NCBI GenBank assembly: GCA_002688355.1
Contig: NZCT01000024.1
Coordinates: forward strand, 111,762 to 175,761
Direction of reading: 5' to 3'
Source of the DNA: an archaeon
GTDB taxonomy: Archaea > Nanobdellota > Nanobdellia > SCGC-AAA011-G17 > GW2011-AR20
DNA: 64,000 nucleotides
Below are positions 17,599 to 36,378 of the stretch, in pieces. Position numbers and translations under genes: made by a program. Numbering within the stretch: position 1 is the stretch's first letter; every line of letters begins with the position of its first letter. The notes under the pieces were generated by a model. That model ran no database searches. It was not told the origin of the DNA and was given only the letters and a program-made list of their open reading frames with translations.

Positions 17599-17599
17599 A

Positions 17600-19043: not shown

Positions 19044-19577
19044 TTATTTCTTTATTTTTCCATAATGAACTAAATCATAATATTTTCCATTCTTTAACAT
19101 TCCATCCTTAGATATTCCTTCCTTTTCCATACCACAATTTTCTGCTAATTTTTGCATACCAATATTTTCTATATTAGTTCCACAATATAATCGATGTAAG
19201 TTCATTTTACTAAACCCATAATCCATAATTAATTTCCAAGCTTCTTTTCCAACACCAGTTCCCCAATAATCTTTCTCCCCAATTATTATTGCAATCTCAG
19301 CATTGCTATCTTTTTTATTAATTTTCTGTAAAGAAATGTTTCCAATATGTCTATCATTATTCTTATCAATTATAGCAAATACCAAAGTATGTTCAGAATT
19401 TCTAACAGATTTAACATATTCTAATGTTTTCTCTTTTGTATTTACAACTTCACCATGTCCATTATATTTACAAACTTCCTTATCATTAAACCATTCTGGA
19501 TAATTTCCTTCAACATCAGATTCCTCAATCTGTCTAAGATAAATATTTTCTCCAATTAATTTAATATCTTCAGTCAT
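19044..19577 (-). CDS. GNAT-family N-acetyltransferase (RimL/Acetyltransf_3-like)
   Basis: HIGNISLQKIN...AEIAIIIGEKDYWGTGVGKEAWK, a GNAT acetyl-CoA-binding motif A-like region. Confidence 0.6.
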   Translation of the reverse strand: MTEDIKLIGENIYLRQIEESDVEGNYPEWFNDKEVCKYNGHGEVVNTKEKTLEYVKSVRNSEHTLVFAIIDKNNDRHIGNISLQKINKKDSNAEIAIIIGEKDYWGTGVGKEAWKLIMDYGFSKMNLHRLYCGTNIENIGMQKLAENCGMEKEGISKDGMLKNGKYYDLVHYGKIKK

Positions 19578-19628
19578 AAGATAATCACAATAGTGAAATT
19601 TATAACCTTTTCTAAGTAAATTTTAAAA

Positions 19629-20654
19629 ATGGAAAAAGAGTATAAAATTGGGATTATAGGACTTGGTAGAGTAGCTAATGAATTTGATAATGATCCAAAA
19701 AGAAAAGTAATCTGGAGTCATACAGGAGCTTATTCTAATAATCAAAAATGTAAACTAACTGCAATATGTGATTTAGATCAAGAAAAACTAAATAATTGCG
19801 CAGAAAAATATAATGTTCCTAAAACTTACACAGATTATAATGAAATGTTACAAAAAGAAGATTTAGATATTCTAAGCATTTGCACTTGGAACTCAACACA
19901 TTATCCAATTTTAAAAGCAGCAGTGGAAAATGGAGTAAAAGCAATATACTGTGAAAAACCAATAGCAAATAATCTAAAAGAAGCTGATGAAATGATAAAA
20001 CTATGCAAAGAAAATAATGTAAAACTAATGATTAACCATTGGAGACGTTTTGATGGTCTACATCCAAAAGTAAAAAAATACATTGATTCAGGTAATCTAG
20101 GAAATGTACAACAAGTTAACTTTTATTATACAGCAGGCATTGCTAACTCAGGATCGCATATGTTTGATCTACTAAGATATTTATTTGGAGATGTTTCCTG
20201 GATTGAAGCTCATTATAAAACTCAAGATGAAGATCCAAATATTGATGGACTCATAAAATTCAAGAATAATCTTCTCTGCACAATCCAATCCCTGGACGTA
20301 GATAGTTACACAAGATTTAACTTAATAATTTTTGGTACAAAAGGAAAAATAGAAATCACAAGAAATGGTTTTGACCTTGATATGTATGAAGCAAAACAAA
20401 GTGATAAATTTTCAGAATACAAAGAACTATACAAAATACCTTCAACAATAAATTTCAAAGAAGAAAGTCATATGGAACATGGAATTGCTCATTTAATAGA
20501 TTGTCTAGAAAATAATAAAACACCAATATCTAGTGGAAAAGATGGTCGTGAATCTTTATCATTAATCTGTGCTTTTCATGAATCTGCAAAAGAAGATGGT
20601 AAAAGAATACAAATACCTTTAAAAGAAAGCAACATAGAAATAAAATCGAAATAA
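19629..20654 (+). CDS. Gfo/Idh/MocA-family NAD(P)-dependent sugar oxidoreductase (WbpB-like)
   Basis: MEKEYKIGIIGLGRVANEF N-terminal Rossmann motif, ...CEKPIANNLKEADEM, and typical length. Confidence 0.7.
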   Translation: MEKEYKIGIIGLGRVANEFDNDPKRKVIWSHTGAYSNNQKCKLTAICDLDQEKLNNCAEKYNVPKTYTDYNEMLQKEDLDILSICTWNSTHYPILKAAVENGVKAIYCEKPIANNLKEADEMIKLCKENNVKLMINHWRRFDGLHPKVKKYIDSGNLGNVQQVNFYYTAGIANSGSHMFDLLRYLFGDVSWIEAHYKTQDEDPNIDGLIKFKNNLLCTIQSLDVDSYTRFNLIIFGTKGKIEITRNGFDLDMYEAKQSDKFSEYKELYKIPSTINFKEESHMEHGIAHLIDCLENNKTPISSGKDGRESLSLICAFHESAKEDGKRIQIPLKESNIEIKSK

Positions 20655-20655
20655 A

Positions 20656-21909
20656 ATGGCAAACCTAGCAATAAATGGAGGAGAAAAATTTAGAAAAGAA
20701 CCTTTTCCAAAACATCCAATAATTGGAGATGAAGAAAAAAAAGCAGCCCTAGACGTTCTAGAAAGAGGGGAATTATCAACATTTTTAGCTTCTCCAGGAC
20801 AATACTTTCTTGGTGGTAAAAAAATAAAAGAATTTGAAGATTATTGTAAAAATTATTTTAATGTAAAACACGCAATATTAATGAATTCTGCAACAGCTTG
20901 TTTACATGCTTCTCTTCCCGCTATCGGGGTAAAAGAAGGAGAAGAAGTCTTAGTTACTCCTTATTCTATGTCATGTAGTGCAACTTGTGCTTTAATGAAC
21001 AACACAGTTCCAATATTTGTTGACGTTAATGAAGAAAATTTCTCTATAGACCCAAAAAAAATAGAAGAGAAAATTACAGAAAAAACAAAAGCAATTATTG
21101 TTGTGCATTTATTTGGAGGTCCAGCAAACATGGATGAAATTATGGAAATTGCAAAAAAACACAACTTAAAAGTTATTGAAGACTGTGCTCAATCTCCTGG
21201 TGGAACATACAAAGATAAATTATTAGGAACAATTGGTGATTGCGGATTATTCTCATTTACAGAAACAAAAAACATTACAGCAGGTGAAGGTGGATTATTA
21301 ATAACAAATGATGATTCTATAGCAGATGTAGCTCAATTAATAAGAAATCATGGTGAAGCTGTTATAGTAGATCAGCCAAGAACTTATAGTTCCACAATTT
21401 TAGGCTACAATTATAGAATGACTGAGATAGATGCAGCAATTGGTTTAGAACAATTTAAAAAATTAGATTCTCTTAATAATCAAAGAATAAAATTAGCTGA
21501 GTATCTATCTGAAAAAATAAAACAAGAAGTTCCAGGAATTACTCCTTATTTAAATAATGAAAATGGTAAAAACGTTTATTTTATTTTACCTTTCAAATAT
21601 TCTGAATCTAAAGTAGGAATACCAAGAGATAAATTCATAGAAGCTTTAAACGCAGAAGGAATTCCATTTGGTTCAGGTTACGTAAAACCTCTTTACCTAA
21701 GTCCAATATTTCATGAAAACAAACATTTTGCATTAAAACATTTTGCTTCTCATATAAGTTACGACAAAGGTATTTGTCCAACTGTAGAAAAATTACATGA
21801 AAAAGAAATTATCTTAACATTAATAGCAAGACCTCCAGCAACTCTAAAAGATATGGATGATATTGTTGAAGCAATGAAAAAAATCATTGAAAATAAAGAA
21901 GAATTATAA
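20656..21909 (+). CDS. DegT/DnrJ/EryC1/StrS-family PLP-dependent sugar aminotransferase (WbpE-like)
   Basis: AINGGEKFRKEPFPKHPIIGDEEKKAALDVLERGELS...CAQSPGG...FSFTETKNITAGEGG (PLP-lysine region). Confidence 0.75.
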   Translation: MANLAINGGEKFRKEPFPKHPIIGDEEKKAALDVLERGELSTFLASPGQYFLGGKKIKEFEDYCKNYFNVKHAILMNSATACLHASLPAIGVKEGEEVLVTPYSMSCSATCALMNNTVPIFVDVNEENFSIDPKKIEEKITEKTKAIIVVHLFGGPANMDEIMEIAKKHNLKVIEDCAQSPGGTYKDKLLGTIGDCGLFSFTETKNITAGEGGLLITNDDSIADVAQLIRNHGEAVIVDQPRTYSSTILGYNYRMTEIDAAIGLEQFKKLDSLNNQRIKLAEYLSEKIKQEVPGITPYLNNENGKNVYFILPFKYSESKVGIPRDKFIEALNAEGIPFGSGYVKPLYLSPIFHENKHFALKHFASHISYDKGICPTVEKLHEKEIILTLIARPPATLKDMDDIVEAMKKIIENKEEL

Positions 21910-22699: not shown

Positions 22700-24217
22700 A
22701 TGGCTCTCGAAACTTTAACCACAACAAATGAACAAGATAGAATAGTTAAATCTAAAGTACCAATAACACCAACTCTAGAAAAATTACTTAACCCAAATCT
22801 TCACAAAAAAGAGCCTATTTTTACAAGTCCTTTAAAAAAACCAAAAGAAGGGGAAAAAGTTTACGATCTTTCACCAGAACAAATTAAAGCAATTCAAGAA
22901 CTAAGAGGAGCAGTAGTTGATCTACATCCAGGAATGGGTGGCGTTGTTCCCAGTAAACTAATACAAATGATTGAAGATGGAATTCCAGTTACTTCATTAG
23001 ATTTTATGATGACAAAAGGATGTAACTTTGAATGTACATGGTGTTATGCTGGTTCAAGTCCATTTGCTACAGAATTTCTTCCTTTTAATAAACTAGAATC
23101 TATAACTCAAGAAGCTGCAGATATTGGAGTCAGTTTATTTATTCTTACTGGTGGTGAGCCTCTTACATATAAAGATCCTGCTTTAGGAAAAGTAAACCAT
23201 AGAGGAGAACATTTTTTCAAAGTTGTTGAGATGATCAAAAATACATACGAACGACAAGGAAAAGAAGCTAAAATTTTAACATTTGATGATGTAGCTTTAA
23301 TCAATGAAAGGATTGCAGAACAATTTGCACATTACAAAATAGGATTATGTACAAAAGGCGACACGTTACATCCTGAATTACAAGATTATAAAGTAAACCA
23401 AGTCGGAGCCTTTAAAAAAATGGAAAAAGGTAATGAAAATTTAATAAAAGTGGGTTATGGGAAAAACCCTGATCTAAGAAATGTAGTTAATTCTGTTTTT
23501 GACCATACAACTTTTGATGGAATGCCAGATCTACATATGTTAGTCAAAGAAAGAGGATTTGATCATTCAATAGTTCCCATTCATTTTTGTGGAAATGCTG
23601 GGGATGAAGATCAAGAAGCAGGGATTCACTCACCCCACGTCAAAGTTCTATATGATCTTCTTTCTAAAGTTGATGAAAAATATTTTGATGAACACTGGGA
23701 ACCTTGGTCAGCATTTACATATAATAAAACCTGTAATAGAAATTTATCAGGCCTTCATATAAGAGCAAATGGTGATGTAACTTCATGTTCAGAATCTCCT
23801 GGAAGAGATGAAACAGACAGGTATACATTTGGCAATATATTTACAGATGAAAATTTCTCCTTAGAAGAATTAGCTTTTAGTAATCGTCTTGCAAACTATA
23901 GAACAGAATTCGCAGAAGGATCTGGAACATATGTATGTGCACCAGATATTTGTGATTTAAATGCTAACGATCTATGCCGAGGTGGATGTGCAGTAAGATC
24001 AGCATATTCAGGTATTAATTATGAAACAGGTTTAATTGAAGAAGGAACAGATGTTCACAATTACAGCACACATAGAGAAGATCCTTTATGCCCAGCATGG
24101 ACAAAACTTGCATTAACACAAGGCATTCTAAAAGAAGGTTTACTTTCAGCTATTCATGAAAGATTGCTTGAAAAAAGTGAAAAATTAGATATTAAAGATT
24201 TTCCTAATCCTTACTGA
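22700..24217 (+). CDS. Radical SAM protein with C-terminal SPASM/twitch-like Cys-rich domain
   Basis: MMTKGCNFECTWCYAG (CxxxCxxC), then GGEPL. The C-terminal region has seven Cys (TSCSESPG...VCAPDICDLNANDLCRGGCAVRS). Confidence 0.7.
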   Translation: MALETLTTTNEQDRIVKSKVPITPTLEKLLNPNLHKKEPIFTSPLKKPKEGEKVYDLSPEQIKAIQELRGAVVDLHPGMGGVVPSKLIQMIEDGIPVTSLDFMMTKGCNFECTWCYAGSSPFATEFLPFNKLESITQEAADIGVSLFILTGGEPLTYKDPALGKVNHRGEHFFKVVEMIKNTYERQGKEAKILTFDDVALINERIAEQFAHYKIGLCTKGDTLHPELQDYKVNQVGAFKKMEKGNENLIKVGYGKNPDLRNVVNSVFDHTTFDGMPDLHMLVKERGFDHSIVPIHFCGNAGDEDQEAGIHSPHVKVLYDLLSKVDEKYFDEHWEPWSAFTYNKTCNRNLSGLHIRANGDVTSCSESPGRDETDRYTFGNIFTDENFSLEELAFSNRLANYRTEFAEGSGTYVCAPDICDLNANDLCRGGCAVRSAYSGINYETGLIEEGTDVHNYSTHREDPLCPAWTKLALTQGILKEGLLSAIHERLLEKSEKLDIKDFPNPY

Positions 24218-26340
24218 GCAAAAGTAGATGTATGAAAAACATGATCTTCCATTTTAGTTTCATATTTCTCTTCAGAAGATTCAACTTGATAAAATAAATC
24301 GCTTATTCTCATATATTCACTCATTTTCCTTAAAGTAAAATTCAAATTAACATTCTTAAATTGATTAATATTACTGTTCAAAGCTTCAACTTGATCATTA
24401 GGTAAATAAAATTTATAATTAATCTTTCCAGCATATTCGTGTAAATTTTTATGATAAGAATCTCGTTTCCATTTTAGCACATCAAAATCAAATTCATTAT
24501 GCTTTTCTATTTCAATTTTAAATTCCTTTTCAATATCTAAACCACTAAAATTAACTCTTAACATGCTTTCAAATTTAATAATATTATCCACAGCAGTTTC
24601 ATAATCTAAAGAAGGACTTTTCTTAGAAATTAATTCTTTAGCTATCTTTCCTAAGTAAATATCAAATTCATTTGGACAATCAGTTATAGTCTTAAAAGTA
24701 TATTGGAAATTTAACTTGCCAAATCCGCCATTCTTTAACTTTTCAAATTCTTCCTCTTTACTATAATGTTCTATTAATTCTTCTTTTGTATCAAACCATT
24801 CTCCCCTAGAGTCGTTATCAAACTCTTTTAATAATTTTTGAACTTCCTTAGGAGCGTTTTCAATATTTTCCATTACAGCAATTAAAAAATCCATAGGATT
24901 AATATCATAAGATTGAATATATTTTAACAAACCCCTATAGTATTTATAATTCCAAGTAAATTGAACTAACCATTGTAATTTCCTAAAGAAAAACAATTCT
25001 TCTTCTGACATATGTTTAGTCGACTTAACCATTTCTTCATATTCAAAAGATTTATACCCACCGTAAGTACCAAAACAAGTATCTATTAATCTAAACTTAG
25101 TCTTAATACCATTTCTTTCCCTATACTCAGGAAGAGACATCTCAGCTCCATTTAACAACCTACAATGATAAACAATTATCTGTCCAGCATCCATATCCAT
25201 TAACTCTCTTAACGCGTTTAAATGACTCTCCTTAGTCTCAAAAGGCATTCCTAGCACCATTTCAGCATCTGAATCAATACCATTATCATGAAAAAAAGTT
25301 AGTAATTCCTTATATGCATCTTGACTAATATTATCTCTTCTAATTTCCTTTAAGGTTTCTAAATTCATAGATTGTAATGACGCATCAACACTTGCTAGCT
25401 CCCCCAACATAGTTGCAATTTTCTTTATCCCATCACTTTTATTCTTAGCCCAAAATGTTGTAACTTTCCTCGGGTAACTGTGTTTATCACTTAATTCCCT
25501 CATTATCTTAGAAAATTCATAATCCCTCTCACTAAAGATTCCAAAATTAGAATCAGAAATACACAATATGTTAGTATTCTTTGTTTCTTCTACTTTTTTA
25601 GCAATATAATAAAACTCTTCTTTTATTCTATCAAATGGAAACATAGCCATCTTCTGATAATCTAAATCTCCCCATACGCAAAAAGTACAAGGATATGGAC
25701 ATCCTCTATTTGTTTCTAAATTAGGAATTAAATTATCCTCAAAAAATTCATCCATTACTCCAGTTAAATACGGAGAAGGTATAACACTAAGATCTTTAAT
25801 TACAGGAGTTTCTTCTCCTCTAATAACTTCATCTTTTTCTTTATCATAATATGCAGTATCTTTTATTACACTTTTTTTCATAAGATTAATGTCTTTATTA
25901 CACTCAAAATATTTCTCTAAAAGATTAACAAATCCAGGTTCTCCTTTATGAATTACATAAAAATCTAAATTATTTTGTTTTTGTAAATAATCTTTTATTA
26001 AATCTGGTCTTATGTGTATATTCGGTCCACCCATTACAGTCATTATTTCAGGATGTTTACTTTTTACATATTTTAACAAATTAATATTTAAATTCTCATT
26101 CCAAGCATAATTACTCAATCCAAGAATATCAGGAGGATTTTTCTCAATCTCTTCTAATAATTTATCTGGGTATTTAAATAATTTAACTGTTAGTTTATCG
26201 CCATAAATTTTATTCAGATATGCTTTAATATATCCAATATTAATTGGAAACATAAAAGGACCTTTACCAACATAATTATGTACAAGATCAGCAAAATAAA
26301 TTACAGTATTTTCTTTTTTAGATTGATTATTCATATTCAA
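24211..26340 (-). CDS. B12-binding domain / radical SAM protein (class B), 709 aa with a long C-terminal extension
   Basis: N-terminal B12-binding-like region (ILGLSNYAWN...TVMGGPNIHI), radical SAM motif TNRGCPYPCTFCVWG, and ~250 aa of additional C-terminal sequence. Confidence 0.7.
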   Translation of the reverse strand: MNMNNQSKKENTVIYFADLVHNYVGKGPFMFPINIGYIKAYLNKIYGDKLTVKLFKYPDKLLEEIEKNPPDILGLSNYAWNENLNINLLKYVKSKHPEIMTVMGGPNIHIRPDLIKDYLQKQNNLDFYVIHKGEPGFVNLLEKYFECNKDINLMKKSVIKDTAYYDKEKDEVIRGEETPVIKDLSVIPSPYLTGVMDEFFEDNLIPNLETNRGCPYPCTFCVWGDLDYQKMAMFPFDRIKEEFYYIAKKVEETKNTNILCISDSNFGIFSERDYEFSKIMRELSDKHSYPRKVTTFWAKNKSDGIKKIATMLGELASVDASLQSMNLETLKEIRRDNISQDAYKELLTFFHDNGIDSDAEMVLGMPFETKESHLNALRELMDMDAGQIIVYHCRLLNGAEMSLPEYRERNGIKTKFRLIDTCFGTYGGYKSFEYEEMVKSTKHMSEEELFFFRKLQWLVQFTWNYKYYRGLLKYIQSYDINPMDFLIAVMENIENAPKEVQKLLKEFDNDSRGEWFDTKEELIEHYSKEEEFEKLKNGGFGKLNFQYTFKTITDCPNEFDIYLGKIAKELISKKSPSLDYETAVDNIIKFESMLRVNFSGLDIEKEFKIEIEKHNEFDFDVLKWKRDSYHKNLHEYAGKINYKFYLPNDQVEALNSNINQFKNVNLNFTLRKMSEYMRISDLFYQVESSEEKYETKMEDHVFHTSTFAQ

Positions 26341-26358: not shown

Positions 26359-27405
26359 TTAAACCTTATCCCAAGTTATTCCTTCATCTTCTTTTATATC
26401 TCTCTTAGCTTCTCTTCCTACTATAACATCTAAATATCTAGGATGTAATCCTTCTAAAGATCTTTTCCTCCCAACCATATAATCTTCTATTTTAGTTCCC
26501 ATGGGAATATCAATATTTGCTACAATTCTCCTTCTTCCAGATTGCATAGCATAAATCTCTTCTCCAGTTATTTTCCTAACCTCTGATCCAAGAGATAATC
26601 TAACTTCCTTAATACCATCTGTCATTTCCTTTAACTCAATAGGATCTACAGAAATAGGATGATCAGGTGCACCTTTAATATTCTTATCAATTGTAAAATG
26701 TTTTTCAATTAACTTAGCACCCAAAACAGAAGCTGCAATCGGAATATGAATTCCTAAAGTATGATCAGAAAGTCCAACAGGTTGTTCAGGAAAAACTTTT
26801 TGTAAAGTTTGCATAAATTTAACATTAGCCTGATCTGCTGGAGTAGGATATATAACCATACAATGCAATATAATAACATCGTTATTTCCTTCATTCTTAA
26901 TAGCATTAACAGCTTCTTCAACTTCTCCAATATTACCCATTCCAACAGAAAGTATAATTGGTTTATTTTTCTTAGCAATATATCTCAAAAAAGGAATATT
27001 TGTTAAATCAGTGGAAGCAATTTTATACGCAGGAACCTCTAACTCTTCTAAAAAATCTACACTTTCTTCATCAAAAGGAGTAGATAAAAAAACAATATTT
27101 TTTTCTTTACAATAACTTACTAATTCTTTCCACTCATCTTTGCTTAAATCGTCCTGAGTTTCATATAAACTACTTTGCGTAGTTCCTTCAGCATTCTTTT
27201 CCCAAAATCTAGGAACTGTTTTAGTAACTAATTTACTTGAAGTAAATGTTTGAAATTTAATTGCGTCAGCACCACCTTCAGCAGCTTTTTCTATTAATTG
27301 CTTACCTCTCTCAAGAATACAATCATGATTGCATCCTGCTTCGGCAATTACATAAGTAGGATTATCTCCTCCAATAGATTTTTCCCCTATTTTTATTTCC
27401 CTCAT
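26359..27405 (-). CDS. N-acetylneuraminate/pseudaminate/legionaminate synthase family (NeuB-like) with C-terminal SAF domain
   Basis: MREIKIGEKSIGGDNPTYVIAEAGCNHD (NeuB N-terminal signature), TIM-barrel core, and C-terminal antifreeze-like SAF segment ANIDIPMGTKIEDYM. Confidence 0.8.
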   Translation of the reverse strand: MREIKIGEKSIGGDNPTYVIAEAGCNHDCILERGKQLIEKAAEGGADAIKFQTFTSSKLVTKTVPRFWEKNAEGTTQSSLYETQDDLSKDEWKELVSYCKEKNIVFLSTPFDEESVDFLEELEVPAYKIASTDLTNIPFLRYIAKKNKPIILSVGMGNIGEVEEAVNAIKNEGNNDVIILHCMVIYPTPADQANVKFMQTLQKVFPEQPVGLSDHTLGIHIPIAASVLGAKLIEKHFTIDKNIKGAPDHPISVDPIELKEMTDGIKEVRLSLGSEVRKITGEEIYAMQSGRRRIVANIDIPMGTKIEDYMVGRKRSLEGLHPRYLDVIVGREAKRDIKEDEGITWDKV

Positions 27406-27437
27406 AGAAAAAATATCAAAGAAATAAATATTTAAAG

Positions 27438-28421
27438 CTATTCATTAAAATTACGCTTAACTATATCTACAACTCTATCTAGTCCTTTACCATCAACTAA
27501 TTCTTGTCCCTTTTTATTCATTTTTTCTCGTAAATTATAATCACTATTTAATTTATTTACTTCATTTCTCAACTCTTCTTCTAAGATTTTAGTTCCCAAT
27601 CCTAAATAAACACTTGTTCCAAATTCAACAAATAATTTGTTTCTATTATCCTCTAATTCATTCTGCGCTAAAACTAATATAGGTAATCCAGTTGCAGCAC
27701 ATTCAAAACTTGTATATCCCCCCGAAACAATACCCACGTCTGCGTTTAACATTAATTTAGATAAATCACTTAACCCTTCATGTAGATTAACATTCTCATA
27801 ATCAGAGTTTATCTTTTCTAGTTCATTTTTATATTTAAAATTAGGAACCATAACAATATCTAATTCTAAATTAGAATCCTTCAAAGCATTAACAGTCTTT
27901 AATGTTAAGCTATTCAAATCTGAACCTCCAAAACAAACAAAAATTCTTTTATTCTCTTTATTCAAAATTCTTTTAGGTAGATTTTTATAAGAATCACTCA
28001 ATAAAGCATATTTAGGCCCATAGTAATATTCTTTTCTAGAGCCAGGATATAAAGAATTAATAACAACATTAGCAATGTTTCTAGTGTCAGTTTCTTGAGA
28101 ATGCTCCATATTTATAATAAAAATATTATTCTCTTTTAACAATTCCATATACGCCTTATTAGCATATAATAAATCATTAAAAACAACATTAGGGTTATAT
28201 TCCTTAATCAATTCAATTTGGCTTTTAATATCATCAAAATCAACTTCTTTAACATTATATCCTCTATCTTTAACAACATTCATACCTAACTTTGATTCTG
28301 AAGACATAACAAATAAAACTTCAATTTCGTCTTTGATTTTGTCAGCAATTCTCAAAGGGGTAAAAGTATGGCCCATTCCAACTTTATTATTCCCTTCTAC
28401 TCTAAAAACTATTCTTTTCAT
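27438..28421 (-). CDS. PseG-like UDP-sugar hydrolase (GT-B-like, pseudaminic acid pathway)
   Basis: MKRIVFRVEGNNKVGMGHTFTPLRIADKI matches the PseG N-terminal GxGHxxR motif. The size is 327 aa. Confidence 0.55.
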   Translation of the reverse strand: MKRIVFRVEGNNKVGMGHTFTPLRIADKIKDEIEVLFVMSSESKLGMNVVKDRGYNVKEVDFDDIKSQIELIKEYNPNVVFNDLLYANKAYMELLKENNIFIINMEHSQETDTRNIANVVINSLYPGSRKEYYYGPKYALLSDSYKNLPKRILNKENKRIFVCFGGSDLNSLTLKTVNALKDSNLELDIVMVPNFKYKNELEKINSDYENVNLHEGLSDLSKLMLNADVGIVSGGYTSFECAATGLPILVLAQNELEDNRNKLFVEFGTSVYLGLGTKILEEELRNEVNKLNSDYNLREKMNKKGQELVDGKGLDRVVDIVKRNFNE

Positions 28422-28455
28422 AATAACACTAGAATAAATATTTTTATAAAACTAA

Positions 28456-29403
28456 TCAAACTGTTATTTCTTTAGTTTTTTTAACCCATTCAACAGTTTC
28501 TTTTAATCCAAAATTTAAGTCATATAATTGTGTATATCCTAATTCATCATTAGCTTTACTTATATCTAAATAATTATGTTTTAAATCTCCAGTAAAAGGC
28601 CCAGAATATTCTGGTTTAACATCTTTATCTAAGAAGTTATTTATAATAAAAACTAATTCATTTAAACTTGTAGGAATACCACTTCCAATATTAATTATTT
28701 CTCCGTCAAAAGCGTCATTATTCAAAGCTTGAACATTAGCATCAACCACATTTTTTACATAAACAAAATCTCTTGTCTTAATTCCCTCACCCCAAATAAC
28801 AGGATTTTCATTATTCAAAATTTTATCAATAAATTTAGGAACAGCTGCAGCATAATGCGTCTTTAAATCTTGTCTAGGTCCAAAAACATTACTTAATCTT
28901 AATATCACAGTTCTCAAACCGTAAGTTTCATGAAATAATTTACAATAATATTCTCCAAGTAATTTTGTAACAGCATAAGTGGATTTTGGCATAGGAACAA
29001 AATTCTCTTTTAAAGGTAAAACCGGATTTTCTCCATAAACAACAGAAGAACCTGCAAATAAAAATCCCTTAATATTATTTCTTCTAGCTGCTTCTAAAGC
29101 ATTATACGTTCCGTTAATATTAACATTATGATATTCAATAGGATTCTTTATAGATTCTAAAATGTACTTCAACGCCGCGTAGTGTAAAACATAATCAAAA
29201 TCCTTAAATTCCTTTTCTAAAAATTCTAAATCTGTAATATCACCTTCAACAAATTCAAATTTATCTTTAACATTCTCTAAATTATTTAAATCTCCATTAC
29301 TCAAATTATCTATAACTTTAACTTCATGACCATTAGTTATCAATTCTTCAACTACATGACTTCCAATAAATCCTGCTCCCCCTGTAACTATTACTTTTGC
29401 CAT
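28456..29403 (-). CDS. NAD-dependent sugar epimerase/dehydratase (UDP-glucose 4-epimerase-like)
   Basis: MAKVIVTGGAGFIGSHVVEEL and YAVTK (YxxxK). Confidence 0.75.
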   Translation of the reverse strand: MAKVIVTGGAGFIGSHVVEELITNGHEVKVIDNLSNGDLNNLENVKDKFEFVEGDITDLEFLEKEFKDFDYVLHYAALKYILESIKNPIEYHNVNINGTYNALEAARRNNIKGFLFAGSSVVYGENPVLPLKENFVPMPKSTYAVTKLLGEYYCKLFHETYGLRTVILRLSNVFGPRQDLKTHYAAAVPKFIDKILNNENPVIWGEGIKTRDFVYVKNVVDANVQALNNDAFDGEIINIGSGIPTSLNELVFIINNFLDKDVKPEYSGPFTGDLKHNYLDISKANDELGYTQLYDLNFGLKETVEWVKKTKEITV

Positions 29404-30663
29404 TTATTTGTAAGTTAACCCTCCAACTTTTACTTCATCTTTAAATTTTTTCAATAATTCTCTTAACTGATCTTCATTAAGGTTACTATGATCAATATTA
29501 ACATAATACTCCCCGCCTTTACCAACTTGAAAATATTTACTCCAATCAGAGTTTTCTGGTTTCATAATTTGTATACCATATTTTTCAGGATCTTCCCACA
29601 AAGGAGTACTTGGATAAGGTGTTAAAATATAAGCATCAGCATATTCCAAATTTAAACTTCTAGCAAAATTAATTGTATCTATAGCCGTCTCCCAAGTTTC
29701 TCCAGGCAAACCAATAATAAAAAATCCTTTAACTTTAATACCTGCTTTATGACACATTTCAACACCTTTTCTTTGTATATCCACTGTCATATACTTCTCC
29801 ATTTTTTTTAATACTTCATCATTTCCACTTTCCAATCCTAAACTTACAATATCGCAACCAGCATTTCTTATACTATAACATAGTTCTTGTGTCAATAAAT
29901 TAGCTCTCGTAGTACATCTCCAAGTGATATCTTTTTTAGGGAAATTTTCTGTAATCAGATTACATAGTTTTAAAACCCTATCAAATTTAAATGTGAAAAT
30001 ATCATCTCCAAAATAAAATCCCCTTATATCAAATTTATCATATAACAATCTCATCTCTTTAATAATATTCTCTGGGCTTCTTGCTCTCCATTTTTTAATT
30101 TTAGCAGATCCACAATAAACACAACTAAAGACACATCCTCTTGAGGTAACCATAACAACAGCCTTCTTACCATTTAAATCCATATCATATTTTCCCATGT
30201 TAAGATTATCATAATCTGGGAAGGGCAGTGCATCTAAATCTTCAATAGGTTTAGAAATAATAAGTTTAGTTTCATCACCTCCCAAAATTTTTTTAATAGC
30301 TTCTTCTCCATCGCCAACAACTAAATGATCAAAAGTTTCGTTACTAGTTTTTTCAGTAGGCATATCTGTAATATGATTACCTCCTGCAATTAATTTTATA
30401 TTTGGATACAATTCTCTTATTTTTTTAGCTAGTTTTATACAATCAAAATAATTTGGTGTTGAAACACTAAAACAAACATAATCATAATTATTCTTTAAAT
30501 TTTCAAATAAATATTCTTCATTATCATGATTTAAATCAATTAACTTAGAATTATAACCTAATTTTTTACAATAAGAATCCAATAAAGCTAATCCTAATGG
30601 CAATCTATCTCCTTTTTTATCTAAAAACTTATCTTCAGGATTAACAAATAAAATTGATTTCAT
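29404..30663 (-). CDS. B12-binding domain / radical SAM protein (class B), immediately downstream of pepM
   Basis: N-terminal B12-like domain ([11 protein letters not shown]) and [14 protein letters not shown] (CxxxCxxC). Its stop abuts the next ORF and its start overlaps the pepM fusion gene by 4 bp. Confidence 0.75.
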
Positions 30664-31979
30664 TTTTCTTTTATCATCCCATTCCCATCAGGGATTAAAT
30701 TAATTACTTGTTTTATTGGCATACACAAATCTTCAACTTCATGTGCCCTTTCATTTCTTAAAATAGATTCTGAAACTTTAACCATTGCTGGATACGCTGA
30801 CCTAAGTAAATGATTTGCATAGATTACCATATTAATTCCGTTATCAGCGAGTTCTTTTTCTGTTATATGTGAATATGTTGAAGGCACAACAACCAATGGA
30901 ACTTTATTTTCAAATTCTTTATACTTTTGACAAAATTCTTTAATTTCATCAAAGCTCTTTTCCTTACTATGTATCATTATAGCATCAGCTCCAGCTTCAA
31001 TATATGCCTTAGCTCTCCTTAACGCATCATCCATACCTTTCTTTAGAATCAGACTTTCAATTCTTGCTATAATCATAAAATCTTCTGTTACTTGTGCTTG
31101 TTTACCAAATTTTATTTTATTTGAAAAATCTTCTATTGTATCTTGAGTCTGCTCTACATCAGTTCCATATAAAGAATTTTTCTTTGAGCCAATTTTATCT
31201 TCTATTATAACAGCAGAAATTCCTAATCTCTCCAAAGATTTAACTGTAAAAATAAAATGTTCTGCTAATCCTCCACTATCACCATCTACAACTATTGGTT
31301 TTGTAGTAACTTCCAAAATCTGTTCAATAGTATTTATCCTTGATGTAACGTCAACAGTTGCAGTGTCTGGTTTTCCTTTTGATGTTGAATCAGTTAAACT
31401 GCTTTCCCATATTCCATCAAATTCTCTTAGCTCTCCATTATCTAAAGTAATATTAGTTTTTTCAGCTATTAAACCAGTTAAACCATTATGAGCTTCTAAA
31501 ATTCTTACAATTGGTTTTGCAGCCAATAATCTTCTTAATTTGTTTTTTCTAAGTTCAGGAGTAGTTCCCATTTCCATCATATTTTGTATTAAATCTGTTG
31601 TAGAAACATCTCTTGTGTATTCAGGTTCGATTAATTTTCCACCCCATTCTTTCATTGCTTCAACAATATCATCTCTTTTACCTTTTTGAATTCCAGTCCT
31701 CCAATCCGTACCGTGAACCATGAAATCTGCTTTTAATTTTCTAACATTAGGAACATAATCCCATGTTTCTTGAGGAATAACTTCCTTAACACCTTTTAAA
31801 TTTTCTACAACAACTTTTCTTTGTTCAAAAGTTAAAAAAGGAAGCCTCTTATAATTCGCAATAGCTTTATCTGTAAGTAAACCGACAGTTACATCTCCTA
31901 ATTTTCTCGCTTCTTTAATTATATTAAGATGACCATGATGAACTGAATCACCACTCATTGGAACATATACAATTGTCAT
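30660..31979 (-). CDS. Cytidylyltransferase-phosphoenolpyruvate phosphomutase fusion (Fom1-like CyTase-PepM)
   Basis: N-terminal [21 protein letters not shown] (HxGH nucleotidyltransferase motif, GCT/TagD-like). From ~residue 135: [27 protein letters not shown] and [16 protein letters not shown], which are PEP mutase/isocitrate-lyase superfamily signatures including the EDK motif. Confidence 0.75.
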
Positions 31980-31993: not shown

Positions 31994-33352
31994 TTAATCA
32001 AACCACTTTTTTGTTTCATTTGCAACTCTCTCTCCACTAGGAAGATATGATAATTCTTTTTGTGTAGAAAGATTTATTGCTCCAGATATACCTAAAGTTG
32101 CAATTCTTCCATTTTCTTCTCCATTATTTGAAAAAGCATGTCTAATAAATGGTTGAATATACATTGAATCTCCTTTACGTAAAATATCATTAAAAGTTTC
32201 TCCATTATGAATCCAACTAAAATCTAAATCAGAATCTCCATAATTATAAACATAAGTATGTAATGAATTATAAAATCCATTTTCAAGATTTTTTTCTTTA
32301 GAAAGAACTTCTATCTCAAAACCTTTCATAAAAGGCATTTTAGAACTTCTAGCTAAAGGATGTAATCTATAATTTTTATTCTCTGCATTAGGATAAAAAT
32401 ATCCTTCTTCTTCATCTTTACGTTTTACTACAACAACTTCTTCATTTGGTTTATAGTCAGGAATCATTAAATCACTAATTTCAATATTTAACACATTAGC
32501 AATTTTCTGTAAATCCTCAAAAGACTTATCTTGATTTTCATCTAAAATTCTATCATCTATTGTTCCATCTAAATCTCTTAAACTTTCTAAAGAAATTCTT
32601 TCATTATCCATATGTTGTTTGATTAATTGACTAACTGCTTTGTTATGATTTCTATAATCTAATGTAAATCCTTCAATAGCTCTTTCACCTAACGCATAAA
32701 ATTCTTTTTGTGCTCTACTTATATCCCCTCCAAATGTAACAGCAATAATAAGAGCTTCGTCTTCTTTACTTCTATTAGTAAAACTATGTGGCCAAAAAGG
32801 TGTTATATAATTAGAATCACCAGTATTCATCTCTTCACAATATCTTTTCCCATTCACTTCATAATAAAAATTAACAGGGCCAATAAAAAAAGTCATTTGA
32901 TGCATAAAATGTCCATTATTATAAGCTACATCAAGATTATTTGGATCACTATTCTCAACATATCTTAATTCTTTAATCCATTCTGGTTTAAAACCACTTA
33001 GCTTTGACATTGCTGTATCTCTATAATCATAATAATCTGTTCTTTCTCCAGTTTTATCTTTTCTATCAAATATTCTACTTGTTTCTTTAGATTCTTCTTC
33101 TCTCATTATTCTTACACCATTTTTACAATCATCTTCTATAAGGTGCAAATCAGAAACATCAATAGGATAACTTAAGCCAATCTTATTTATCAATTCATAT
33201 GTTTCCTCCTTTTTACAATCCCCAGATAATATTGAATTTAGTTTTCCAGCATCCATTCCAACCTCTGTAGCACAAGCTTCTGGAGTTCTCTTTAAATCAT
33301 TTAATTCACTTAATATTCTTGAACCAACTAATTTTAAAAAATCGTCTGTCAT
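31994..33352 (-). CDS. HEPD/MPnS/HppE-family non-heme-iron bicupin oxygenase; candidate methylphosphonate synthase-like enzyme
   Basis: 452 aa with an N-terminal HTH-like segment and cupin core [22 protein letters not shown]...ITPFWPHSF. By direct count the motif residues are H148, Q152, F162, I183 and H189, a 2-His-1-Gln pattern. The gene lies inside the pepM-ppd-adh operon. Confidence 0.6.
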
Positions 33353-34128
33353 TTTCCCCTCCCGTTTGCCTTATCAAAATCTTGAACAGTATCAAACTCT
33401 TTCCAATTTCCCTGAATTATTGTACAGTGTATTTCTTCATTCTCATCTATTAATTCTTGGAAAATATCAGTTATGTAAGCTTTTTGCCATTCCTTTGTAT
33501 TTTGGAATGAATCTAGTTTCTGTAACTTTAAATTTAGTCTATCAAAATGTTTTAAAAAGATTTCTATGCCTTTATAGGTAAATTTCCAAAGTCCAATAAA
33601 CTCTCCTTGTCTATTTTTAGGTGTTTCATGAGTAAAAATATGTTTTCCAATCTTCATAATTTTTTGATTATCATCAAAAATAACATTTTCAGCTTCATCA
33701 ACTGGATGATCTGTTCTTCCTTCATAATAATCTTGCCAATCAATATCAACAACAGCGCTAATATGTTCTTTAGATATTTTTAATTTATTAACAACACTTG
33801 AACCATACCAAATATCAGAATAGCTTATTATAACATCTTCTTTTTCATTTTTAGCTTCTTCTAATTTTTCCCTTGCACAAATTAAAGAATGTAAAATGTT
33901 AGTGTTCCCAAAATCTATATTTTCAAAATATGTTAATTCTGGAAAAATAATCTTTTCTTTTTTATATCCTCTTATTACAGATATATCATTTACCCCATTT
34001 TCTCGTAAAACATCTAAAATATTCTGAAGAATTGGTTTACCTCTAATTTTTAACATGCATTTAGGCGTATCCTCCGTTAAAGGTCTTAACCTTGTAGAAG
34101 GTCCTGCTGCAATAATTATTGCCTTCAT
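33349..34128 (-). CDS. LicC-like nucleotidyltransferase (CTP:phospho-alcohol/phosphonate cytidylyltransferase family)
   Basis: MKAIIIAAGPSTRLRPLTEDTPKCMLKIRGKPIL closely follows the LicC/sugar-NTase N-terminal motif (GxGTRL). Confidence 0.65.
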   Translation of the reverse strand: MKAIIIAAGPSTRLRPLTEDTPKCMLKIRGKPILQNILDVLRENGVNDISVIRGYKKEKIIFPELTYFENIDFGNTNILHSLICAREKLEEAKNEKEDVIISYSDIWYGSSVVNKLKISKEHISAVVDIDWQDYYEGRTDHPVDEAENVIFDDNQKIMKIGKHIFTHETPKNRQGEFIGLWKFTYKGIEIFLKHFDRLNLKLQKLDSFQNTKEWQKAYITDIFQELIDENEEIHCTIIQGNWKEFDTVQDFDKANGRGK

Positions 34129-34171: not shown

Positions 34172-35317
34172 TTACATTTCTATCGTACTTAGAATTACAT
34201 TAACATCTTCTTCTGTTGGAACTTCAATACTATTAAACATTCTTTCTGGCGTGAAACCTTCTTTTGTTATTATAGATTTATCGTCAATTTTTGCATCTTT
34301 TAAAGTTAAAGGAGCACCTATTTGGGATTTTAAAGATTGGATACTATCATATAAAATTTCGAAATGATTTTTATTAATCGAAGGGAATATATATTCAACA
34401 AGACCATTTAATTTTTTTCTCACTAAATCAGATCTATCATAGTTAAATTTCAAAATTTCTGGTAAAGTCAAAGCGCAAGCAAACCCATGTTCTAAATCAA
34501 AATGAGCTGTCATTGGATAAGAAAGTGAATGTGCAGGACCTGTAGTTGTCCTACTTATAGCTATACCAGACCATAAACTCGCATACATCATTCTTTCTCT
34601 AAATTTAACTTCGTTAGGGTATTTATAGGTTTTTTCTAAATAACCAAATACTTCAGCTATATTAGTTGGAATAAAATTATCAGTTAAAGAGTTAGAATTT
34701 TTATTAAAATAAGCTTCAAATAATTGAGTCAACGCATCTAATCCAGTTGCTGCAGTGATTTTCCCAGGTAAAGATAAAGTTAATTCAGAATCTAAAATAG
34801 CATAATCAGGACTAACTATATATTTTTCAGGGCCTCCAAAAGATTGTTTCCTTTTATCTTTATAAAAAACAGAAAAAGGTGTAACTTCTGAGCCAGTACC
34901 AGCAGTAGTAGGGATAGCTACAAAAGGGACTTGTTTCTCTTTTATTTTACCTTGAGTAAAGTCTCCATTAAAACCCAAAATTGAAGTATCATTTCTATAA
35001 ACACAAGAAATAATTTTTCCAATATCCATCACAGCACCACCACCTGCACCTATGACCATATCAGAATCATATTCTATCAATTTTTCTAAAGCGTCTTGAA
35101 CTCCTTCAAGTGTTGGAGAACCTTCAACATTATTATAAACAAAAACATCTCTACCATCTAACAAATTTTTCGTTACATCTAAAAATCCTGATTTTTCAAA
35201 AGAATTCTTTCCAGTAACAAGAAATATTCTTTTTGCATCATGTTCTTGAATTATTTCTTTTAATTGATAAAGTCCATTTTCATTGCATATTTTTGTTGGA
35301 ATATTAAAATATTTCAC
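34172..35317 (-). CDS. Iron-containing (group III) alcohol dehydrogenase; candidate phosphonoacetaldehyde reductase
   Basis: GAGGGAVMDIGK glycine-rich Fe-ADH motif, with His-containing metal-site region HSLSYPMTAHFDLEHG. Its position between ppd and pepM matches the FomC/PhpC arrangement. Confidence 0.7.
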   Translation of the reverse strand: MKYFNIPTKICNENGLYQLKEIIQEHDAKRIFLVTGKNSFEKSGFLDVTKNLLDGRDVFVYNNVEGSPTLEGVQDALEKLIEYDSDMVIGAGGGAVMDIGKIISCVYRNDTSILGFNGDFTQGKIKEKQVPFVAIPTTAGTGSEVTPFSVFYKDKRKQSFGGPEKYIVSPDYAILDSELTLSLPGKITAATGLDALTQLFEAYFNKNSNSLTDNFIPTNIAEVFGYLEKTYKYPNEVKFRERMMYASLWSGIAISRTTTGPAHSLSYPMTAHFDLEHGFACALTLPEILKFNYDRSDLVRKKLNGLVEYIFPSINKNHFEILYDSIQSLKSQIGAPLTLKDAKIDDKSIITKEGFTPERMFNSIEVPTEEDVNVILSTIEM

Positions 35318-36378
35318 TTTATTGCTTCCATAAATCTCTTAGTTATTTCTTCAGGTAATAATTCAATTCTCTCAATATCTTCTAGATTGCCTTTCTTAAC
35401 ATTAACTAATAAAAAATTAGGGCCATCCAATTCCAATAATTCTTTAATAACCTTTTCTAAATTCTCCTTATCATTAACTTTTCTAGAGTTTGTATATCCA
35501 CAAGCTAAAGCAATATCTTTAATCTCAGTTGTATTTGATGTAGTTCTTTGTCCTCCTGTAGAAGACCAAGATTCATTATCTAAACAAATATGTAAAAAAT
35601 TCTTAGGTTTAATATTTCCAATTGTAGATAAAACTCCAAGATGCATTAAAGCAGCACCATCACCATCTAAAACAATTATTTTCTCTTTAACTTCTTTAGC
35701 AATACCCAATCCAATAGATGAAGCATGACCCATTGAACCAATAACATAAAAATTTTTAGGAGCATCATCCGCTTTATTTAACTCTCTTGAGATCATTCCA
35801 GTAGTAGAAATTCTAATCATATCTTTTGTATTATTTGCTATTAATTCTACAGCGTCATATCTAGACATTTCGTAATTTGTTTTATGTTGAGATTCATATT
35901 TTTCTATAAATTCAGGATTAACAATTAAAGCTACTGTACTTGTATTTTCCAATTCATCATTAGCCCATTTAATATCATCAAAAGATTCTAAAACTTTAGA
36001 TTTAATATTAGCTAATTCTAAAAACTCTTTAGTATTCTCCCCCATATACCAATGTTCAGGAGCATCTTTTTTATTAGCAGGATTACCTCTCCATCCAACT
36101 AATAATAAACTTTTAGTGTTGTACAAATTATTCAAAGAAGTTTGAGGGTTAATTAAATTCCCAATACCAGCATTTTGCATCATTACAACAGGTTTTTTCC
36201 CAGTTAAATAAGAACCAGCACCTCTTGAAAAAGCTAAACCTTCATTAACATCAGGAATATATTCATTTTTCAAAGTATCTAAATAATTAAAAAATCCACC
36301 AAATGAAGAATCAGCAACACCCATAAAAGGACCAAAATTATATTTTTTCAATTCTTGATACAATTCTTCAGGTTTCAT
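35314..36378 (-). CDS. Phosphonopyruvate decarboxylase-like thiamine-diphosphate enzyme
   Basis: TPP-binding motif GSMGHASSIGLGIAKEVKEKIIVLDGDGAALMHLG (GDG...N). The 354-aa size and gene context with pepM support the call. Confidence 0.7.
   Translation of the reverse strand: MKPEELYQELKKYNFGPFMGVADSSFGGFFNYLDTLKNEYIPDVNEGLAFSRGAGSYLTGKKPVVMMQNAGIGNLINPQTSLNNLYNTKSLLLVGWRGNPANKKDAPEHWYMGENTKEFLELANIKSKVLESFDDIKWANDELENTSTVALIVNPEFIEKYESQHKTNYEMSRYDAVELIANNTKDMIRISTTGMISRELNKADDAPKNFYVIGSMGHASSIGLGIAKEVKEKIIVLDGDGAALMHLGVLSTIGNIKPKNFLHICLDNESWSSTGGQRTTSNTTEIKDIALACGYTNSRKVNDKENLEKVIKELLELDGPNFLLVNVKKGNLEDIERIELLPEEITKRFMEAIK

Follow-up and report, generated by a model that had tools for sequence, protein, structure and literature searches.

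Which sugar does the nonulosonic acid (NulO) cassette on the archaeal contig NZCT01000024.1 make, and what are cobalamin-binding radical S-adenosylmethionine (SAM) enzymes doing on either side of it? The stretch analysed here (the window, 64 kb) is AT-rich (~28% G+C), and the core of the cassette is a triad of open reading frames (ORFs), 26359-27405 (348 aa), 27438-28421 (327 aa) and 28456-29403 (315 aa), for a NeuB-family synthase, a PseG-like protein and an epimerase-type short-chain dehydrogenase/reductase (SDR). The original prediction had placed these three genes exactly where the ORF listing has them, all on the minus strand, and had proposed a sugar of pseudaminic (Pse) or legionaminic (Leg) type; the genes stand as described, whereas the B12-radical SAM genes that bracket the triad (29404-30663 and 24211-26340) and the accompanying phosphonate gene string had been overlooked. 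Because the cassette is shared with two B12 radical enzymes and a methylphosphonate gene string, we suggest that it probably makes not ordinary Pse or Leg acid but a modified form that would be new. The reading we favour, with moderate confidence, is a radical SAM-tailored, non-canonical NulO, probably C-methylated, extra-aminated and CMP-activated, on a phosphonate-bearing surface glycan. Family assignments, intact catalytic residues, conserved neighbourhoods and a natural gene fusion, all directly observed, carry this reading.

The assignment of the synthase (26359-27405, minus strand) to the NeuB family with a C-terminal SAF domain, as originally predicted, is unambiguous at the level of sequence: Pfam NeuB (PF03102) is matched with 289.5 bits (E 2.6e-86, cut-off 22.1) and SAF with 30.9 bits (cut-off 21), and the catalytic residues are kept. 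Residues E22, K50, Q52, K128, S131, S213, H215, E234, H236 and D248 align with E25, K53, Q55, K129, S132, S213, H215, E234, H236 and D247 of NmNeuB, of which we take H215 and H236 to be metal ligands and the remainder to be catalytic or to bind phosphoenolpyruvate (PEP). Further to that, R315 aligns with the SAF-domain Arg of CjPseI, which was read from that protein because the NmNeuB alignment stops at query residue 307. Across 26 relatives, most of these residues do not vary. A KDO8P/DAHP-type synthase or a phosphonate-pathway aldolase is ruled out, as DAHP-synthase models reach ~20 bits, and with it the clustering with KDO8P or DAHP synthases that had been named as evidence to the contrary. 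Among the NCBIfam equivalog models, NeuB_NnaB (TIGR03569) comes out on top at 357.9 bits, under its cut-off of 399.65, and PseI (TIGR03586) scores 284.8 bits (cut-off 340.25). SpsE (1VLI, 244 bits) is matched better in the PDB than CjPseI (8H2C, 171 bits) and NmNeuB (162 bits), and a rough neighbour-joining tree assigns the window protein to a DPANN clade that lies towards SpsE and LegI and leaves out CjPseI and NmNeuB.

The neighbouring gene (27438-28421, minus strand) encodes a GT-B protein of the PseG/SpsG family, a candidate UDP-sugar hydrolase that would free the hexosamine. It matches the PseG equivalog (TIGR03590) over profile positions 2-268 of 280 with 122.3 bits (E 2.7e-35), under the cut-off of 153.55, and has no Pfam match above threshold. 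H18 aligns with the catalytic H17 of CjPseG, and the N-terminal motif reads GMGHTFTPLR. The PseG family and the GxGH element including the catalytic His are thus as predicted, whereas the literal GxGHxxR is not, the canonical Arg position being Thr in the window clade. The AlphaFold2 model (pLDDT 78), built from a shallow alignment since a word-indexed homologue search returned 6 proteins only, has a GT-B fold, and in a Foldseek comparison with the PDB the lowest root-mean-square deviation is to CjPseG (3HBN; 4.6 A, TMt 0.73, 20% identity). The gene adjoins NeuB in 40 of 80 related loci.

The third member of the triad (28456-29403, minus strand) is an extended SDR of the epimerase type, which the Pfam Epimerase match (218.7 bits) and the SSVVYG and YAVTK (YxxxK) motifs bear out. 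Its top NCBIfam models, TviC (200.6 bits) and GalE (187.3 bits), are both under cut-off, and homologues 77-78% identical are syntenic in the related loci L003 and L008. A role as 4,6-dehydratase is ruled out by motif, SSVVYG standing in place of STDE.

What sets the cassette apart lies on either side of the triad. The gene next to the synthase (24211-26340, minus strand, 707-709 aa) encodes a TokK/CysS-like cobalamin radical SAM enzyme, a candidate C-methyltransferase acting on the NulO. The protein has an N-terminal B12-binding domain (35 bits), a Radical_SAM domain (33 bits) and a CPYPCTFC motif (CxxxCxxC). Its best PDB matches are TokK (141 bits) and CysS (137 bits), iterative cobalamin-dependent C-methyltransferases that act on unactivated carbons, and its top NCBIfam model is the KedN5-family methylcobalamin radical SAM C-methyltransferase (194.8 bits, under the cut-off of 700). 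Heading the five-gene cassette is a class-B (B12-binding) radical SAM enzyme (29404-30663, minus strand, 419 aa; Radical_SAM 102 bits, B12-binding 62 bits) with a CVFSCVYC motif; it matches HpnJ (177 bits), PhpK (134 bits) and AprD4 (88 bits) in NCBIfam, all under cut-off, and AprD4 (6FD2, 80 bits) in the PDB, and homologues 82-84% identical head the cassette in L003 and L008. A third radical SAM gene (22700-24217, plus strand, 505 aa; Radical_SAM 39.6 bits, CNFECTWC), convergent with the TokK-like gene and overlapping its end, has weak matches to SPASM-type maturase models and encodes a possible radical dehydrogenase or tailoring enzyme. Non-B12 radical SAM/SPASM genes are also found beside the TokK-like gene in L004/L005, L095 and L098.

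The order B12-radical SAM, SDR, PseG-like, NeuB, TokK-like B12-radical SAM is repeated in L003 and in four Woesearchaeota contigs (L004, L005, L008 and L088) with identities of 60-84%, and none of the five has a PEP mutase directly upstream. A search with the TokK-like protein returned 663 relatives at E<1e-20, none of them named, and a metagenome scan returned 6 loci. In the sample of ~20 loci from which the association is drawn, the TokK-like gene is co-located with NeuB in L003, L008, L009, L010, L012, L041, L090-92, L095, L097, L098 and L100, and L090, L091, L092, L095, L097, L098 and L100 had been fetched by the radical SAM protein alone. Within the cultured Fundidesulfovibrio butyratiphilus JCM 15519 (L095), a Nitrospirota locus (L098) and L100, it is set in otherwise canonical Leg-type gene sets composed of SDR (not seen in L098), DegT, PglD-like acetyltransferase, NeuB, Epimerase_2, NTP-transferase-CBS and CTP_transf_3. 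Its companions there are a second aminotransferase and an iron-containing alcohol dehydrogenase (Fe-ADH), to which L095 and L098 add a radical SAM-SPASM gene. The 1214-aa protein P0195 fuses NeuB (1-330), a CTP_transf_3 cytidylyltransferase (339-564) and a TokK-like radical SAM enzyme; its CTP_transf_3 part is 32% identical to the window gene at 18309, and its radical SAM part shows 38% identity over 95% of the window protein. Another protein, P0202 (956 aa), unites Radical_SAM and SDR/epimerase domains. Neighbourhoods kept across phyla and the natural P0195 fusion therefore give strong grounds to predict that the TokK-like enzyme acts on the NulO or on its CMP derivative; we know of no characterised member of this NulO-linked family.

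These neighbourhoods bear on the possibility that the cassette makes plain legionaminic acid by a UDP route of the Bacillus subtilis Sps type, with the B12-radical SAM enzymes modifying a phosphonate (Fom3- or PhpK-like, on a cytidylylated phosphonate) or some other sugar. In B. subtilis, the UDP-based route to legionaminic acid combines SpsE with the PseG-like SpsG, the T-x9-M-x3-K dehydratase SpsM, SpsC, SpsD and SpsF (PMC7439481). All six component types occur in the window: an SpsE-like synthase, a PseG-like protein, a dehydratase (40241-41254) with the T-x9-M-x3-K triad reported for CapE, Pen and SpsM (PMC7439481), an aminotransferase, a GNAT and a CTP_transf_3 protein, the dehydratase being non-syntenic and the aminotransferase of a different type. 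SpsE is the best solved homologue of the synthase, a PseG-like protein is often found paired with a NeuB of the LegI side (the 40 of 80 loci above), and the 419-aa radical SAM gene, with its PhpK-family similarity, overlaps the stop of a cytidylyltransferase-PEP mutase gene. However, in L003 and L008, neither of which has a PEP mutase next to the cassette, NeuB, the PseG-like gene and the SDR are still accompanied by both radical SAM genes; the TokK-like enzyme is linked to NeuB in bacteria without nearby phosphonate genes (L095, L098, L100) and fused to it in P0195; and Fom3 is absent from the PDB matches of both B12-radical SAM proteins. We regard this alternative as unlikely. A Fom3-like phosphonate enzyme was likewise rejected as the principal reading of the 419-aa protein, which stays with the NeuB cassette without an adjacent PEP mutase and has no Fom3 match.

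This single 64-kb stretch has three minus-strand genes for cobalamin-binding radical SAM enzymes (6853-8292, 24211-26340 and 29404-30663), which, in a presumably small DPANN genome, implies that externally supplied B12 would be needed for building the surface glycan. In the Nanoarchaeota locus L012, the PseG-like gene is preceded by a B12-radical SAM gene (2662-5367, plus strand) for a product of 901 aa, the length of which is due to an intein (Intein_splicing, Hint, PT-HINT) separating the B12-binding from the radical SAM domain.

How would the sugar be activated, aminated and transferred? A wider core recurs in the DPANN loci L010, L012 and L097, in which the PseG-like protein, the TokK-like radical SAM enzyme and NeuB are joined by one or two CTP_transf_3 genes, a Gfo/Idh/MocA oxidoreductase, a DegT aminotransferase and a TagF/KpsC-like protein of ~600 aa. 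Since this core is conserved, the dispersed CMP-synthetase and aminotransferase can be counted among the parts of the system, as the original prediction had proposed, and their homologues adjoin the NeuB cassette in L003 as well as in these three loci. Judged by gene order, the CTP_transf_3, DegT and Gfo/Idh/MocA proteins and the TagF/KpsC-like candidate transferase are predicted members of the NeuB system. A 375-aa gene between NeuB and CTP_transf_3 in L012 and L097 has no homologue that we could find in the window.

The candidate CMP-NulO synthetase is located where it had been predicted (18309-19043, plus strand, 244 aa; Pfam CTP_transf_3 106 bits). KdsB models reach <=76 bits over its N-terminal half, the cytidylyltransferase 6OEW is matched in the PDB with 138 bits, and homologues come after the NeuB cassette in L003 (68% identity), L010, L012 and L097. 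The Gfo/Idh/MocA oxidoreductase (19629-20654, plus strand, 341 aa; Pfam GFO_IDH_MocA 92.5 bits), a candidate hydroxyl-to-keto oxidase, scores 119 bits on inositol 2-dehydrogenase and 115 bits on archaeal UDP-GlcNAc 3-dehydrogenase, both under the NCBIfam cut-off. It adjoins the DegT gene in the window, L003, L010, L012 and L097. That gene (20656-21909, plus strand, 417 aa; Pfam DegT 314.5 bits) encodes a pyridoxal phosphate-dependent aminotransferase most like perosamine synthetase (198 bits), KdnA (5K8B, 191 bits) and 2-deoxy-scyllo-inosose aminotransferases (BtrR, 184 bits) in the PDB, with PglE (128 bits), PseC (125 bits) and WbpE (121 bits) weaker. It is 69-83% identical in L003, L010, L012 and L097, better conserved than NeuB, and always paired with an oxidoreductase: Gfo/Idh/MocA in DPANN loci, Fe-ADH (the KdnB family) in bacterial loci and beside P0195. 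By analogy with the Kdo8N pathway, we infer that the ulosonic acid, or a late intermediate, may have a hydroxyl oxidised and the resulting keto group transaminated. KdnA and BtrR act on substrates that are not nucleotide-linked.

Of the two aminotransferases originally predicted, both were found, the second as an SDR-DegT fusion cut by the window edge (1-1656, minus strand; SDR motif SSSCSVYG). L003 has a 723-aa SDR-DegT counterpart (1714-3885; 69% identity), located 4 kb upstream of its NeuB cassette, and such a fusion could perform the keto-sugar amination step in one protein. The candidate transferase of the activated sugar onto the glycan (13715-15541, plus strand, 608 aa) matches Glyphos_transf (57.7 bits), Epimerase_2 (30.3 bits) and Capsule_synth (28.1 bits) in Pfam, and homologues 48-57% identical directly follow DegT in L010, L012 and L097.

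The GNAT N-acyltransferase (19044-19577, minus strand, 177 aa; Pfam Acetyltransf_3 95 bits) is a candidate acylator of the sugar amino group. The gene and its location agree with the prediction of a PseH, whereas the PseH equivalog is not reached; likewise, its place within the 18309-21909 group speaks for membership in the same system, but it is kept beside the cassette in just 2 of 80 related loci. Between the TagF-like and CTP_transf_3 genes, and overlapping the start of the latter, is an ATP-citrate-lyase-like trio (15543-18331, plus strand): an ATP-grasp protein with a citrate-binding domain, a succinyl-CoA-ligase alpha-like subunit and a citryl-CoA lyase (245.7 bits, above cut-off). The trio may provide the neighbouring GNAT with an uncommon acyl-CoA. 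As it has no counterpart in any related locus, we do not tie it to the module.

Does the module then belong to a known pathway? Besides the PseI, NeuB_NnaB and PseG models (above), the predicted components stay under the cut-offs of PseB (dehydratase at 40241, 253.2 vs 407.75 bits), PseC and LegC (DegT at 20656, 229.5 vs 423.5 and 201.5 vs 420), PseH (GNAT at 19044, TIGR03585, 47 vs 93.1), PseF (CTP_transf_3 at 18309, 20.5 vs 205.7) and LegB (SDRs at 28456 and 43415, 176-183 vs 475). The pseudaminic/legionaminic assignment of the original prediction consequently fails on every one of these models. The subfamily check it had proposed ranks NeuB/LegI over PseI; because no Pse, Leg or Neu model is passed, it leaves the choice between PseI and LegI unsettled. 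By these comparisons the module appears to be of NulO type, nearer Sps/Leg than Pse, and no demonstrable member of a characterised pathway.

A canonical Pse pathway would have its genes dispersed over the window (PseB at 40241, PseC at 20656 or 1-1656, PseH at 19044, PseG at 27438, PseI at 26359, PseF at 18309), with the radical SAM enzymes serving other parts of the glycan. It can draw on a homologue for each of the six steps, on a PseG-family protein adjoining the synthase, and on PseB being the top NCBIfam model of the dehydratase. Yet all six fall under the Pse equivalog cut-offs, the synthase does better on the NeuB/LegI model and on SpsE than on CjPseI, which lies outside the window clade, and the aminotransferase is more KdnA/perosamine-synthetase-like than PseC-like. 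The dehydratase, moreover, sits 13 kb off in another sub-cluster and is absent from the syntenic relatives. We consider a canonical Pse pathway improbable.

The dehydratase itself (40241-41254, plus strand, 337 aa; Pfam Polysacc_synt_2 314 bits) is a UDP-GlcNAc 4,6-dehydratase of the CapE/Pen/FnlA/SpsM type, with FnlA at 239 bits (cut-off 730) in NCBIfam and 6BWC (CapD/Pen group, 243 bits), FnlA (228 bits), CapE (213 bits), PseB (181 bits) and PglF (169 bits) as PDB matches. Its location and type are as predicted, whereas synteny with the module in the closest relatives fails: no homologue is present in the flanks of L009, L010, L012 or L097. It could be the first step of the pathway, but its link to the module is weak. 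The sub-cluster in which it lies (40241-44389) further holds a GT4 glycosyltransferase, a non-hydrolysing WecB equivalog (42305-43384; WecB 374.8 bits, cut-off 210.15; NeuC 101.4 bits, cut-off 235.9) and an SDR with STSEVYG (UXS/ArnA/LegB-like). It looks more like a 6-deoxy-N-acetylhexosamine (HexNAc) or N-acetylmannosamine branch than like part of a NulO pathway. The WecB equivalog, ruled out by that match as the missing NeuC/LegG, is the only Epimerase_2 gene in the window, where no hydrolysing 2-epimerase of the NeuC/LegG type was found.

A further alternative is a 9-hydroxy sialic-type sugar made without a 4,6-dehydratase, for which the SDR would epimerise a UDP-HexNAc, the PseG-like protein would hydrolyse it (possibly with 2-epimerisation) and NeuB would form an acid like N-acetylneuraminic acid, to be decorated with amino and methyl groups afterwards. 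In its favour, a core without a Polysacc_synt_2 dehydratase is conserved in L009, L010, L012 and L097, the SDR is of the epimerase type, NeuB_NnaB is the top NCBIfam model of the synthase, and the aminotransferase resembles KdnA and BtrR with their non-nucleotide-linked substrates. On the other hand, PseG-type enzymes are to our knowledge associated solely with 6-deoxy di-N-acetyl substrates, the contigs of several relatives are short, so that a dehydratase could lie elsewhere in those genomes, and the window and L003 do have SDR-DegT fusions and a CapE-type dehydratase. We consider such a sugar rather doubtful.

The cassette that would make the favoured radical SAM-tailored NulO lies in one string with phosphonate genes. 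From 36378 down to 24211 the genes overlap or are 0-43 nt apart, and the NulO cassette continues a series of minus-strand genes for a phosphonopyruvate decarboxylase (Ppd, 35314-36378; Pfam TPP_enzyme_C), an Fe-ADH (34172-35317; Pfam Fe-ADH), an NTP-transferase (33349-34128; Pfam NTP_transferase), a bicupin like methylphosphonate synthase (MPnS, 31994-33352) and a cytidylyltransferase-PEP mutase fusion (30660-31979; PEP_mutase TIGR02320 408 bits, above the cut-off of 319.55), whose stop the 419-aa radical SAM gene overlaps. The bicupin matches the MPnS of Nitrosopumilus maritimus (6B9S, 315.8 bits) better than hydroxyethylphosphonate dioxygenase (HEPD, 224.5 bits) and keeps the 6B9S-aligned H148, Q152 and H190 (a 2-His-1-Gln iron site), F162 and I184, the residues that Born et al. 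are said to have reported in 2017 as setting MPnS apart from HEPD. With PEP mutase, Ppd, Fe-ADH and bicupin, the window is predicted to hold a full methylphosphonate route in a marine DPANN-type archaeon. L003 and L012 likewise have a PEP mutase no more than 10 kb from the NeuB cassette, L003 with a bicupin as well (44% identity to the window protein), and a PEP mutase adjoins more distant NeuB homologues in a Heimdallarchaeota (L051) and a Gemmatimonadales (L070) locus. Surface glycoproteins have been put forward as carriers of marine phosphonates (bioRxiv 10.1101/2020.11.04.368217), and the simplest reading of the string is a single surface glycan bearing both NulO and methylphosphonate.

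Two further observations touch on the phosphonate genes. An APS kinase, a membrane protein of the LPG_synthase_TM family and two genes of the CDP-alcohol phosphatidyltransferase family accompany the island (11461-13663, 36391-37149), and homologues recur beside the NeuB cassette in L006, L012 and L097; these genes hint at sulfation and at a transfer step for head groups activated with CMP or CDP, for example phosphonates. Close to the NeuB cassette of L097 (887-3802, plus strand), a 971-aa protein fuses a cytidylyltransferase-like domain with PPDK_N and PEP-utilizer domains. Its gene adjoins an NTP-transferase 35% identical to that of the window (33349-34128), and no PEP mutase was seen in the L097 locus.

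We infer the substrates, step order and product structure of the pathway throughout, as follows. The epimerase-type SDR would adjust a UDP-HexNAc-type precursor, on which the distant CapE/SpsM-type dehydratase, an aminotransferase and the GNAT may have acted beforehand. The PseG/SpsG-family protein would then free the sugar from UDP, and NeuB would condense it with PEP to a nine-carbon 2-keto-3-deoxy acid, from which the CTP_transf_3 enzyme would form the CMP-sugar. The Gfo/Idh/MocA oxidoreductase and the KdnA/BtrR-like aminotransferase would turn a hydroxyl into an amine, and the TokK/CysS-like enzyme would C-methylate an unactivated carbon of the sugar or of its N-acyl group, with the second B12-radical SAM enzyme and the 505-aa protein perhaps contributing further radical chemistry. 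Finally, the TagF/KpsC-like protein would move the sugar onto the surface glycan, to which the products of the same gene string would add methylphosphonate.

Several points weigh against this scheme. No pathway component passes any Pse, Leg or Neu equivalog cut-off, so that each specific activity is extrapolated from family membership, and the conserved core comes without a 4,6-dehydratase and without a hydrolysing 2-epimerase. Foldseek rates GT1/GT28 GT-B transferases as high as PseG for the PseG-like protein, with PseG 34th by E-value, and thus does not separate hydrolase from glycosyltransferase. The neighbour-joining tree is without branch support, and its references are sequences reconstructed from printed alignments. 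Class-B radical SAM enzymes are not uniformly methyltransferases; the 419-aa enzyme and the SDR are conserved in the closest relatives only; and no NeuB lies within 10 kb of the 37%-identity TokK-like homologues in Nitrosopumilus sediminis (L096) and a Patescibacteria locus (L099). Spacing is, besides, the sole sign that phosphonate and NulO genes would be co-transcribed. NulO function itself is well supported, and we consider it likely that a NulO is made. More tentatively, and with less confidence than in the reading itself, we propose that the cassette makes an undescribed class of NulO, the skeleton or N-acyl group of which is extended by cobalamin radical SAM C-methylation, probably on the free or CMP-activated sugar, and which carries an extra amino group. 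The same chemistry would occur in many uncultured DPANN archaea and, on canonical Leg clusters, in Nitrospirota, Desulfovibrionia and others, and here the sugar would be displayed on a methylphosphonate-bearing glycan.

The host is a marine DPANN-type archaeon, as indicated by the NeuB matches and by a downstream ORF with a Methanococcales-type S-layer domain: an identical NeuB protein is present on a TARA Oceans scaffold, and the nearest relatives are in a Candidatus Woesearchaeota genome (80% identity) and in Nanoarchaeota metagenome-assembled genomes (~54%). The ORF in question (54272-56548, minus strand, 758 aa) is an S-layer candidate, and that C-terminal domain (29.5 bits) is its sole one. 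A large ORF (60203-63871, minus strand, 1222 aa) and seven further ORFs between 52090 and 59048 have no NCBIfam match; together with the S-layer candidate, these ORFs likely encode surface proteins, which may be targets of the glycan. Elsewhere in the window (46159-49756), a MaoC dehydratase, a FabG-like SDR, an FkbH-like HAD+GNAT protein and a phosphoglycerate kinase (PGK 384.8 bits) are encoded side by side, and the kinase beside the FkbH-like enzyme would fit a local supply of 1,3-bisphosphoglycerate for glyceryl transfer.

NulOs are key surface determinants that take part in immune evasion, in phage and host recognition, and in the glycosylation of flagellin and S-layers; their pathways are well known, some archaea included, and their known diversity lies in stereochemistry and in N- and O-substituents. 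In the literature searched, no paper pairs NulOs with radical SAM enzymes (with or without cobalamin) or with DPANN, and a search for nonulosonic acid, archaea and phosphonate returned unrelated reviews only. What appears to be new here is the conserved coupling of a NulO synthase, a cytidylyltransferase and a cobalamin radical SAM enzyme, once fused in a single protein. If widespread, this link would suggest carbon-skeleton or acyl C-methylation as a new kind of NulO variation, and would hand an uncharacterised radical SAM family of at least 663 members a testable substrate. The glycan island, an investment of >50 kb that would be B12-dependent and phosphonate-bearing in a small-genome, host-dependent DPANN archaeon, bears on host attachment. 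Its methylphosphonate route bears on the sources of oceanic methylphosphonate, a precursor of aerobic methane, and, if the proposal is true, DPANN archaea would be an unrecognised marine source.

The system can be compared with several known ones. Like Sps of B. subtilis, it has a synthase closest to SpsE with a partner that is PseG-like and not NeuC-like, and it includes a T-x9-M-x3-K dehydratase, GNAT, DegT, CTP_transf_3 and a TagF-like protein, SpsB of B. subtilis being TagF-like as well. Unlike Sps, it has two cobalamin radical SAM enzymes and a third radical SAM protein, a Gfo/Idh/MocA oxidoreductase and an epimerase-type SDR; its aminotransferase is KdnA/perosamine-synthetase-like, its dehydratase is non-syntenic, its host belongs to DPANN, and it shares a string with methylphosphonate genes. 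With the Pse pathway of Campylobacter and Helicobacter (PseB, C, H, G, I, F) it shares the succession of UDP-sugar hydrolase and PEP-condensing synthase, the PseG His and the metal and PEP ligands of the synthase, but it fails six equivalogs, has Thr for the Arg of GxGHxxR, and leaves CjPseI outside its clade.

In the Kdo8N pathway of Shewanella, the KdnB oxidase and the KdnA aminotransferase act on the ulosonic acid. The window likewise has an oxidoreductase and DegT pair beside an ulosonic-acid synthase and a cytidylyltransferase, KdnA is the second-best PDB group of the aminotransferase, and the bacterial relatives use an Fe-ADH, as KdnB is; in contrast, the oxidoreductase of the window is Gfo/Idh/MocA, and its sugar would have nine carbons and not eight. 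The TokK-like protein shares the N-terminal B12-binding domain and CxxxCxxC core of TokK/ThnK, CysS, GenK and Fom3, with TokK and CysS as top PDB matches. Fom3 acts on a cytidylylated substrate and may serve as a precedent for radical SAM action on a CMP-sugar, as the NeuB-CTP_transf_3-radical SAM fusion suggests; unlike these enzymes, the window protein falls well under the KedN5 cut-off (195 vs 700) and is partnered by NulO genes in place of antibiotic clusters. Finally, the MPnS clusters of N. maritimus and Pelagibacter resemble the window in having PEP mutase (Ppm), Ppd, Fe-ADH and a bicupin with the MPnS-specific Q152, F162 and I184 amid glycan genes, whereas here the host is of DPANN type, Ppm is fused to a cytidylyltransferase, and the phosphonate set is directly continuous with a NulO cassette.

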